A stretch of DNA of 64,000 bases, taken from positions 188,619 to 252,618 of the forward strand of contig CALSSQ010000001.1 of the NCBI GenBank assembly GCA_943789065.1, in the 5' to 3' direction. Below the pieces are notes generated by a model. That model did no database searches. It worked only from the letters and a program-made list of their open reading frames with translations, and had not been told where the DNA came from. The translations under genes were made by a program, and so were the position numbers. Shown piece after piece: positions 11,081-13,433 of this stretch. How positions within the stretch are numbered: position 1 is the stretch's first letter; each line of letters opens with the position of its first letter. The stretch comes from an uncultured Candidatus Actinomarinales bacterium (GTDB lineage Bacteria > Actinomycetota > Acidimicrobiia > Actinomarinales > Actinomarinaceae).

Positions 11081-12517
11081 ATGAAGAAGTTATTAATAAT
11101 ATTTTCTTTCTGTTTATTTTTTAATGCCACATTAGATGAAAGTAATATAGACATTGAATTATCGATTACAGACACTAAAACATTTGAAATATCATGGTCA
11201 GTAAATATTCAAGACTACGAAGAATTAATACTTAAGATAAACCACAATGGCACAATAGAACAGTTTCAAATCCCTACTTCCGCTGGAAGCATTGAGATGT
11301 GTTGTTATTCTGACGAAGTAGAGGTAACAATTCTTGTACTAGTCACTACATCTATTGAGCTAGATCCAGAAGAGTGCCCAGCTGTTAACTGCTATGATTT
11401 TATAGAAGAAACATACTTCAACACAAAAAAACTATCTTTTCCAGCAATAACTACAACAACTTCTACTACTACAACAACTCCCACTACAACTACTACTATT
11501 CCTCCAGTAGCAGTAGAAGAAAAAGTAGATTTTTTAAATATCGAAATTACTAATGCATTAATTACATCTATTCCCTTATTTGATGACATTGACTTAACTG
11601 ACCAGGAAAAAAATAGTATGGCAGTTATAGTCTCTACGTCCATCATTATTCTTTTTTATATTGTCTTATTACTTCAAGAATGGTTCAACAAGATTTTATC
11701 GGAAAATAATATTAGGTGGTTTAAATCCGATAAGGAATTTGTTAAAAGTAGTAAATTAAAAAATATTCTTAAGATTTTTTTCGTGTTGATTTTGACCTCG
11801 TTTCTTGTTGGCTATGTTGAGGAAGGCGCAAGTATTTCAATTGACCTAGAGAATGTTGCAATATTTATTGCAGCTTTTGTTGGCTTAGCATCAGTAACAC
11901 TATTTTCAGAAGGAACAGAGGGATTTATTGAAAGTAAGTATTTAAAACAAAAAGTGAAAATTAAGTGGGCTCCACAAGCTATATTCTTTGCAATGGTTTC
12001 AACCGTATCATTCATATATTTCAATATGCCGATAGGTTTTATTTTTGGATTTGTAGCTAGTAGTTACATAATTTCTCATCGCTCTACTGCAAAAATTTCT
12101 CCAAAATTTTTCTCCTCAATTTCACTGAGTCTTGCAGGTTTTGGGTTCTTTTACTTAACCTCAACTGAATTTGTTCTAAACTCTACAGTTATTACCGCAA
12201 TAGCTTCGCTGTCTTACTTGATGTGCTTGGAAGGGGTATTATTCAAGTCTCTTCCTGGAGGAGGAAATGAATTATTTGAATCATTAAATGACTCACAAGG
12301 AGTCTATAAAATATTACCATTAGGGTCATTCCTAGTTGGAGTATGGCTTTTTATAAGAATTTTAATCATATCTCCTGAAAGTGAATTTGCTAATTTTCAA
12401 CAAGACATACTTGGTATGGGATCATTTTCAATAACATTTGCCATAATGCTATTAATTTATATACTTGGTATTCTTATTCTTGGTTTTGGAGTAAAAGTAT
12501 TCTCAGACGATGAATAA
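11081..12517 (+). CDS. Multi-pass membrane protein with N-terminal secreted Cys-containing domain and Thr linker (tentatively FGLLP-motif membrane protein-like)
   Basis: Signal-like N-terminus, CxxxxCY motif, T-rich linker, about 9-10 hydrophobic segments, EGVLFKSLPGGGNELF. Paralogue of 29629-31253. Confidence 0.7.
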   Translation: MKKLLIIFSFCLFFNATLDESNIDIELSITDTKTFEISWSVNIQDYEELILKINHNGTIEQFQIPTSAGSIEMCCYSDEVEVTILVLVTTSIELDPEECPAVNCYDFIEETYFNTKKLSFPAITTTTSTTTTTPTTTTTIPPVAVEEKVDFLNIEITNALITSIPLFDDIDLTDQEKNSMAVIVSTSIIILFYIVLLLQEWFNKILSENNIRWFKSDKEFVKSSKLKNILKIFFVLILTSFLVGYVEEGASISIDLENVAIFIAAFVGLASVTLFSEGTEGFIESKYLKQKVKIKWAPQAIFFAMVSTVSFIYFNMPIGFIFGFVASSYIISHRSTAKISPKFFSSISLSLAGFGFFYLTSTEFVLNSTVITAIASLSYLMCLEGVLFKSLPGGGNELFESLNDSQGVYKILPLGSFLVGVWLFIRILIISPESEFANFQQDILGMGSFSITFAIMLLIYILGILILGFGVKVFSDDE

Positions 12518-13433
12518 CAAATACATATTTTCATTTTTAGTGATTCTTACTGCAGTTTCTTTATTATTACTCAACGACCAAACTTCAGATTCATCAACAG
12601 TTCCAGATACTACGACAACCACAACAGTTCCAGATACTACGACAACCACAACAGTTCCAGATACTACGACAACCACAACAGTTCCAGATACTACGACAAC
12701 CACAACAGTTCCAGATACTACGACAACCACAACAGTTCCAGATACTACGACAACCACAACAGTTCCAGATACTACGACAACCACAACAGTTCCAGATACT
12801 ACGACAACCACAACAGTTCCAGATACTACGACAACCACAACAGTTCCAATAAATATCTCCGAAGACGAAGAATCTGTTCAGATAGTCGAAGAAGAGAAGG
12901 TCAACGAACAGCTACTCTACGAAGGGCCATATTTATCATTCGCAGGATTTGAAGGCTCTAATCAAAGATTGCTTGATGAACTAGTAGCTGCTTTGCCAGC
13001 AGAATTAAAAGGAGTAATTAAAAATAAGATATTATTCATTAACGGTTGTCATCAATATGCTCTCTCTGTTGTCTCTAGATGTCCCTACGGTGTATGGGAC
13101 TCTTCAGGAACTTATCCTGACGGAACCAAAGGCGCAGAGTGGACCCTTTCAATATGGATTTCAGATAGAGCATTTACTGCTGGAGAGCAAAGAGATGTAT
13201 TGATTCATGAATCAGCCCATGCTTTATCATATTTAACCAGGAATTGTAATACTGAAAATAATACAAGTTTTAGAAAAGACGCATGGGATTATTTTGGAAA
13301 TGAAGAGCAATTTGCTGATGCGCTGGTACTTTATTTTGGAGGTTCATATAACCACTACAGGCTCTCAGGAGATCTTACTAATGAGGAAACGAATTATATT
13401 TCAAATTACATAGATACTTGTAGCGAAGGATAA
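12510..13433 (+). CDS. Membrane-anchored, Thr-stalked HExxH zinc metalloprotease-like protein
   Basis: N-terminal TM, (VPDTTTTTT)x9 stalk, HESAH at 13206-13220, downstream EEQFADA, four Cys conserved with 31243-32121. Confidence 0.75.
   Translation: MNNKYIFSFLVILTAVSLLLLNDQTSDSSTVPDTTTTTTVPDTTTTTTVPDTTTTTTVPDTTTTTTVPDTTTTTTVPDTTTTTTVPDTTTTTTVPDTTTTTTVPDTTTTTTVPINISEDEESVQIVEEEKVNEQLLYEGPYLSFAGFEGSNQRLLDELVAALPAELKGVIKNKILFINGCHQYALSVVSRCPYGVWDSSGTYPDGTKGAEWTLSIWISDRAFTAGEQRDVLIHESAHALSYLTRNCNTENNTSFRKDAWDYFGNEEQFADALVLYFGGSYNHYRLSGDLTNEETNYISNYIDTCSEG
12597..12848 (+). repeat. Perfect 27-bp tandem repeat, 9 units plus a partial (in-frame VNTR)
   Basis: Unit acagttccagatactacgacaaccaca; all synonymous positions identical. 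Confidence 0.97.

Follow-up and report, generated by a model that had tools for sequence, protein, structure and literature searches.

A predicted membrane-tethered zincin with remote similarity to M34 peptidases in the sortase cassettes of Candidatus Actinomarina

In the LapG/LapD-LapA system of Pseudomonas fluorescens, a giant repeat adhesin is encoded together with a dedicated protease that controls its retention at the cell surface; this protease, LapG, is a cysteine protease found in the periplasm of Gram-negative bacteria. A second type of system is formed by the Pro-Pro endopeptidases PPEP-1 (Zmp1/CD2830, MEROPS M34) of C. difficile and PPEP-2 of Paenibacillus alvei, and for PPEP-1 the consensus (ILV)NP|P(AIV)P has been reported, with sites repeated near the anchor of the adjacent substrates (PMC8610288). 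Candidatus (Ca.) Actinomarinales are abundant, uncultured and extremely streamlined marine actinobacteria whose envelope is unknown, and the main genomic description of the group contains no mention of a sortase, an LPXTG protein, an adhesin or a protease (PMC7771536); a full-text literature search for Actinomarinales plus sortase found nothing. Here we describe a stalked HExxH metalloprotease and its paralog encoded in 64,000 nucleotides from an uncultured Ca. Actinomarinales bacterium (GenBank assembly GCA_943789065.1, contig CALSSQ010000001.1, forward-strand positions 188,619 to 252,618; hereafter the window). Three sortase cassettes lie in the window, and the protease occurs only in the two complete ones (cassettes 1 and 2), as an earlier note made from the sequence of this DNA had observed. 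We propose, with a probability of about 0.5, that the enzyme represents a new M34-like zincin family and works as a dedicated protease, tethered to the membrane, on proteins encoded in the same surface-fibre cassette. This proposal is based on the invariant catalytic residues, the fold and profile matches, the conserved gene order, an 8-nt overlap with the preceding gene, the co-travel of protease clades with cassette types, natural fusions, the neighbour of a third paralog, and the retention of the gene in a streamlined genome.

Catalytic domain and remote relatives

The two proteases have the following features (residue numbers are those of the cassette-1 enzyme; A1 and A2 are alignments of 30 close homologs and of 23 domains down to 26% identity, respectively).

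12510..13433, + strand: cassette-1 stalked HExxH metalloprotease gene (P0001), 307 aa, from the open reading frame (ORF) and its translation
12510..12587, + strand: predicted signal anchor (transmembrane), a basic N-terminus plus a hydrophobic segment, read from MNNKYIFSFLVILTAVSLLLLN; the segment is kept in homologs
12595..12848, + strand: Thr-rich stalk, (VPDTTTTTT)x9, a 27-bp tandem repeat with 9.4 copies and 100% matches (Tandem Repeats Finder)
12906..13430, + strand: catalytic zincin domain, residues 133-307 (175 aa), from the structure model and from Foldseek and profile matches to M34 and other zincins
13206..13220, + strand: HESAH, residues 233-237, two predicted zinc-binding His and the predicted catalytic Glu; invariant in A1 and A2 and aligned with H142/E143/H146 of PPEP-1
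13302..13319, + strand: EEQFAD, residues 265-270; Glu266 and Asp270 are invariant family-wide and align to E185 and E189 of PPEP-1
13356..13358, + strand: Tyr283, 17 residues after Glu266; invariant column Y151 of A2
31243..32121, + strand: cassette-2 paralog (P0002), 292 aa, with HETSH at 31894-31908 and EELFAD at 31990-32007

The hydrophobic stretch of the cassette-1 enzyme comprises residues 6-21 (YIFSFLVILTAVSLLLL), downstream of the basic N-terminus, and no AxA-type signal-peptidase site was seen by eye in the N-terminal region; the anchor would accordingly stay uncleaved. An acidic linker with ESVQI lies between the stalk and the catalytic domain. The Cys residues at positions 180, 191, 246 and 304 are predicted to form two disulfides and, together with the Thr stalk, argue for an extracytoplasmic location, so that the catalytic domain would lie outside the cell. 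Stalks range from 48 to 111 aa across the proteases, and among database proteins with a 100% identical catalytic domain the repeat occurs in 3, 7 or 9 copies, a spread that could reflect either genuine variation in length or a collapse of the repeat in short-read assemblies. The cassette-2 paralog has the same four Cys plus one extra, shares 46% identity over 191 aa with the cassette-1 enzyme (E 3e-67), and forms a separate, well-supported clade in the protease tree. Thus the transmembrane anchor, the Thr stalk, the HESAH and HETSH motifs and the four conserved Cys, which the earlier note had read in both complete cassettes, are all present in the sequence. No further HExxH motif was found besides those of the two proteases in ORFs above 100 aa in six frames of the whole window.

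Thermolysin-type gluzincins (clan MA(E)) carry the signature HExxH ... ExxxD, in which the Glu ligand is followed by an Asp four residues on, and several gluzincin families have a Tyr located after the Glu ligand. Across the 30 close homologs, no variation occurs in the four Cys, in HExxH, in EE..D or in Tyr283 with its adjoining Arg (a Tyr-Arg pair). Cys191, H233, E234, H237, E266, D270 and Y283 remain unchanged in domains with as little as 26% identity, which yields the family signature HExxH-(28)-ExxAD-(12)-Y. From these patterns, zinc would be ligated by H233, H237 and E266, with Glu266 as the predicted third ligand and Asp270 as the predicted second-shell residue of the ExxxD motif, and Tyr283 is a candidate for the transition-state-stabilising Tyr.

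An AlphaFold2 model of the catalytic domain, built from the homolog alignment, reached a predicted local distance difference test (pLDDT) value of 85.5 and a predicted template modelling (pTM) score of 0.82. In domain numbering, strands 56-60, 75-78 and 95-98 form a three-stranded sheet that precedes the active-site helix; HExxH is located on helix 108-123 and ExxAD on helix 146-156. Foldseek against the PDB gave no strong match. The list was headed by anthrax lethal factor (LF; E 0.011, probability 0.87, TM-score 0.36), followed by the LF-like domain of Certhrax (range for LF and Certhrax: E 0.011-0.1, TM-score 0.31-0.36), and the remaining interpretable matches, likewise weak (E 0.01 or higher), were to the zincins BlaR1, YbeY, selecase, MATCAP and M32. 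A search of the family hidden Markov model (HMM) against all PDB sequences placed PPEP-1/Zmp1 in the top nine positions (E 0.007-0.03) and an entry described as an ATLF-like domain at E 0.14. The PPEP-1 alignment spans the edge strand, HExxH and the Glu helix, and when the family was aligned by hhalign with the PPEP-1 fragment that this search had printed, the probability was 87.8%; the printed sequence also matches the PPEP-1 motifs HETAH ... EEFFAESFAYYY, which the earlier note had given. A single-sequence PDB search of the protease returned low-complexity stalk matches only. The Pfam ATLF model (PF07737) matched 1 of the 23 diverse members at E 0.13, far under threshold, and neither the cassette-1 enzyme nor the cassette-2 paralog at E up to 10. 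The zincin-like fold that had been suggested is therefore borne out by the model and the zincin matches, albeit with weak E-values, and the Foldseek, profile and hhalign results, each of them marginal, agree in pointing to M34/ATLF proteins as the closest solved relatives. We therefore regard the domain as a zincin to which, among known enzymes, those of M34 are probably closest, at a remote level; by no curated threshold is it a member of M34.

A word-indexed search retrieved 223 relatives, all of them unnamed and mostly from marine metagenomes. Only 62 family members turned up when 1.84 billion cluster representatives (50% identity) were scanned exhaustively with HMMER, which makes this a very small family. 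Among prokaryotes, scanned with one genome per species, 50 loci were obtained, nearly all of which are labelled Ca. Actinomarina, OCS155 or other marine Acidimicrobiia, and the family is restricted to marine Acidimicrobiia. Two contigs carry other labels (L033, Flavobacteriales; L036, Methanobacteriota); both contain an Actinomarina cassette with rho synteny and are probably mis-binned. Pfam, NCBIfam and PHROG models gave no match for the two paralogs and the 23 diverse members, with generic zincin models (SprT-like, M78, M91, ATLF) appearing below threshold in the library scans. The family is unnamed, has no curated model and would merit one. A 609-aa relative (P0167) shows weak PDZ and Lon_C matches (E 0.002-0.02) N-terminal to its HExxH domain.

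Sortase cassettes and their linkage to the protease

The linkage between protease and sortase cassette that the earlier note had drawn from the window is strongly supported, being conserved in all Actinomarina loci with an upstream flank. By tblastn, all of these loci show the order giant protein, sortase, (TetR-like gene), membrane protein, protease, (SBF), rho. In cassette 1, the start of the protease gene overlaps the 3' end of the membrane-partner gene by 8 nt, and the overlap reads ATGAATAA. In the tree, the cassette-linked proteases fall into two well-supported clades, c1 and c2, each represented once in the window: the c1 clade travels with a giant protein that carries LAATG/LAETG and is fused to its sortase, and the c2 clade with LPVTG/IPFTG proteins and a separate sortase. 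In two family members (P0053, P0108), the FN3-like ectodomain of the membrane partner, its stalk and two transmembrane helices are joined directly to the protease domain. A third Actinomarina paralog, which lacks a Thr stalk, lies 5 nt upstream of the gene for another Thr-stalked surface protein (L044 9635-12806), which has no sortase signal and is related to a 725-aa beta-propeller protein of the window. Taken together, the synteny, the fusions and the neighbour of the third paralog tie the protease to stalked surface proteins. Marine metagenomes from numerous studies contain the protease region in almost identical form, and the gene is retained in a streamlined genome of roughly 1.1 Mb (PMC7771536).

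Cassette 0 consists of a giant protein, a sortase and a TetR-like gene. The other two cassettes contain the following genes upstream of the protease.

4573..10435, + strand: cassette-1 giant repeat protein with LAATG sorting signal, continuing into the sortase; frame break near 8432
10439..11077, + strand: TetR-like gene between sortase and membrane partner (Pfam TetR_N E 1.5e-4, under the curated cut-off); its position is kept in c1-type loci
11081..12517, + strand: cassette-1 orphan membrane partner, 478 aa, with signal peptide, FN3-like ectodomain, Thr stalk and multi-helix transmembrane bundle
16012..29629, + strand: cassette 2, with TetR (16012-16626), a 3750-aa LPVTG protein (16716-27968) and the sortase (27968-29629)
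29629..31253, + strand: cassette-2 membrane partner, split in the window into ORFs 29629..30666 (345 aa) and 30606..31253 (215 aa)

In c1-type cassettes, the LAATG/LAETG signal, a transmembrane helix and a basic tail lead into the sortase without a stop codon, an arrangement that is also found in L002-L004, L007, L009, L024 and L025. In L003, the giant protein, anchor and sortase form a single unbroken ORF of at least 2,641 aa (L003 1-7926), which reads through the place equivalent to the break at 8432. In the window, this break separates ORFs 4573..8436 and 8441..10435. Contigs assembled from three metatranscriptome runs are 1 base shorter at 8432, and either an assembly error or a strain variant is the probable cause of the break. 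The order in cassette 2 is TetR, LPVTG giant, sortase, membrane protein and protease, followed by SBF and rho. The two ORFs of its membrane partner match the front and back of the 478-aa type by tblastn, in the near-identical locus L030 the gene is unbroken and encodes 531 aa, and contigs from four independent DNA runs have 2 bases fewer, at 30618 and 30620/30621. The membrane partner of cassette 1 has no Pfam match, and its 515 homologs are all unnamed; its AlphaFold2 model is poor (pLDDT 60), and Foldseek returned only FN3 matches, for the N-terminal domain. The N-terminal region of the cassette-2 sortase (27968-29629) has a strong Pfam RecA_C match (E 2.7e-16, residues 83-137). Directly after the cassette-1 protease and convergent with it, the - strand encodes the 725-aa protein (13643-15820), which consists of an IF2_N-like cytoplasmic domain (E 2e-6), a transmembrane helix, a Thr stalk, a small Cys domain and SBBP beta-propeller repeats.

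Relatives with about 40% identity occur in other marine Acidimicrobiia. They are lipoprotein-like; a His-rich segment and a 60-aa module precede the catalytic domain, and the profile of this module matches peptidoglycan-binding domains (2nr7 with E 5.7e-4, SleB, an endolysin and an L,D-transpeptidase). Their genes are located in housekeeping neighbourhoods (EngB, response regulator) where a sortase substrate is absent from the nearest 10 kb; at four of the loci a sortase lies 2 kb away on the opposite strand. These contexts indicate that the association with the cassette is derived. The ancestral enzyme would therefore have been held at the wall by its peptidoglycan-binding module, which Actinomarina would have swapped for a transmembrane anchor and a Thr stalk. 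The His-rich run between the lipoprotein-like signal and the module (P0128, P0130 and L049-L056; for example DHDHNHDHNHDHGHDH) may bind metal. Another contig of 13.8 kb (L006), which may be a mobile element, encodes two divergent protease paralogs (6758-8020 and 10259-11416) beside a topoisomerase, a YkuD L,D-transpeptidase, DUF2958 and numerous small genes of unknown function.

Proposed function and alternative explanations

Considering the architecture of the protein and its genomic context, we propose the following hypothetical scenario. The protein would be an extracytoplasmic zinc endopeptidase of an unnamed gluzincin family, predicted to be catalytically competent, whose N-terminal signal anchor would keep it on the membrane while the poly-Thr stalk of variable length would project the catalytic domain into or beyond the wall. 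In Ca. Actinomarina, the protease gene has become the last of the cassette, presumably translationally coupled, and its product would most probably cut a cassette protein in the wall zone, the candidates being the giant wall-anchored fibre, at its stalk or base, and the stalked FN3 ectodomain of the membrane partner. Such a cut could serve release, turnover or maturation, and a dedicated sheddase, as suggested in the earlier note, is a reasonable possibility. About 30 kb of the roughly 1.1-Mb genome is given to giant sortase-anchored proteins in the window; if these fibres were processed or released by the protease, the enzyme would be the control point of the main surface structure of the cell. 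Because the enzyme, the partner and the giant fibres all stand on poly-Thr stalks, and the copy number of the enzyme stalk varies, we also considered a 'ruler' protease, in which stalk length would set the height at which the wall-anchored fibres are cut and released. This idea is doubtful; if true, it might, for example, allow a highly streamlined free-living marine bacterium to shed a surface coat bound by phages or grazers.

Several observations weigh against the proposal of a dedicated cassette protease of M34-like ancestry. The similarity to M34 is marginal (E about 0.01, TM-score about 0.36), and no curated family model in Pfam, NCBIfam or PHROGs matches the protease. Cassette 0 has no protease of its own. 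The distant members outside cassettes, with their peptidoglycan-binding-like domain, imply that the ancestral role was not cassette-specific. Metatranscriptome contigs cover the gene, but their depth stays level on both strands and through the intergenic spacer; this coverage is therefore not counted as proof of expression, and DNA carry-over is possible.

In the main rival explanation, the enzyme would instead be a peptidoglycan endopeptidase that cuts stem peptides or cross-links and opens the wall for threading and anchoring of the giant fibres. The module of the basal members, the YkuD gene near one relative and the stalk, which puts the domain in the wall, speak for this explanation; however, to our knowledge the known peptidoglycan metallopeptidases (M15, M23, M74, M14) are not HExxH plus Glu zincins, and the nearest relatives cut proteins. 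Surface display of wall-anchored proteins is reported to depend on peptidoglycan hydrolysis in S. aureus (PMC10041135), which would also fit. Against this, PPEP homologs use non-covalent wall-binding modules as plain anchors (PMC8610288), so that the module need not make peptidoglycan the substrate, and the Actinomarina members have lost it. A role in wall remodelling is conceivable but, on balance, unlikely. The earlier note had drawn attention to Pro-Pro sites in the stalks of the substrates, and all six that it listed are present. A PPEP-type Pro-Pro endopeptidase that sheds the sortase-anchored giants at these sites would agree with PPEP-1 as the best PDB sequence match, with LF as the best fold match and with a gene that adjoins sortase substrates, as those of PPEP-1 and PPEP-2 do (PMC8610288). 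In addition, many cassettes share a T(L/I)PP(V/T) site where the first Thr stalk ends, which leaves room for a looser stalk-end motif. The data, however, lend no support to Pro-Pro specificity as such. The protease orthologs of L002-L004 (65% identity) are intact, yet their giant protein has zero Pro-Pro; in L003 this amounts to none in 2,642 aa, including the entire anchor-proximal region. Each window substrate has 2 Pro-Pro versus 1.3-3.3 expected from composition, i.e. chance level, and a P3' Pro is absent from every Pro-Pro site in the stalk and anchor regions of these substrates (no PPxP). The position aligned with Tyr178 of PPEP-1, seven residues before the Glu ligand E185 in the alignment from which this numbering was taken, is Y, F or L in the family (Phe in the cassette-2 paralog) and falls in the region of an 11-residue insertion in PPEP-1; the invariant Tyr of the family is instead located 17 residues past the Glu. 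PPEPs have, moreover, been reported only from Firmicutes (PMC8610288), and cleavage at Pro-Pro appears improbable.

A further explanation holds that the protein serves nutrient acquisition or surface housekeeping as a tethered ectopeptidase of general function and that its link to the cassette is a genomic accident. The tree indicates that the family is older than the cassette association, and relatives occur in housekeeping contexts, but the 8-nt overlap, a position that does not vary in either cassette type, the divergence of the c1 and c2 clades in step with their cassettes and the fusions to the partner ectodomain are difficult to reconcile with an accident, which leaves this explanation a small probability. 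An O-glycoprotease-like enzyme could cut the (possibly glycosylated) poly-Thr stalks that are common to all extracytoplasmic proteins of the island, as the giants, the membrane partner, the 725-aa propeller protein and the protease all have Thr runs ending in (I/L/V)P; such an enzyme would, however, cut its own stalk, and searches of Pfam, Foldseek and PDB profiles revealed no similarity to known mucinase families, making it very improbable. Least credible is a BlaR1-like signalling protease that inactivates the TetR regulators of the cassettes: although BlaR1 is among the weak fold matches and the cassettes are interspersed with TetR-like genes, no TetR gene separates sortase and protease in the c2-type cassette. 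A BlaR1-like regulatory protease was also rejected on predicted topology, as the signal anchor, Thr stalk and Cys pairs place the domain outside the cell and the TetR proteins are cytoplasmic.

Comparison with known systems

Compared with the systems described so far, the dedicated cassette protease proposed here resembles PPEP-1 and PPEP-2 most closely in that these likewise show HExxH followed by an E-x-x-A-(D/E) helix and are small single-domain enzymes encoded beside sortase-anchored surface proteins. The edge strand before the active-site helix also aligns with that of PPEP-1 ('SIWISN' to 'RIGFSN'). In contrast, identity to PPEP-1 is about 23% over 69 columns, and the spacing from His to Glu is 29 here versus 39. 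The Actinomarina enzyme additionally differs in its predicted membrane tether on a poly-Thr stalk, its four conserved Cys and its host, a member of the Actinomycetota rather than the Firmicutes, and its presumed substrates lack the PPEP-1 consensus, with one ortholog's substrate lacking any Pro-Pro. The ATLF-like domain (PF07737) of anthrax LF and Certhrax shares the zincin core, but the TM-score is only 0.31-0.36, and the protease described here is not a toxin and has no extra domains. With the thermolysin-type enzymes it has in common the family-wide invariant E-x-x-A-D, 28 residues after HExxH, which fits the gluzincin pattern, although there is no sequence or fold match to M4 and the domain is much smaller (about 175 aa). 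LapG is a functional analogue only, without homology, and no c-di-GMP module was seen here. If our proposal is correct, the logic of an adhesin plus a dedicated zinc protease, as in the PPEPs of the Firmicutes, would extend to planktonic Actinomycetota by way of a very divergent zincin family.

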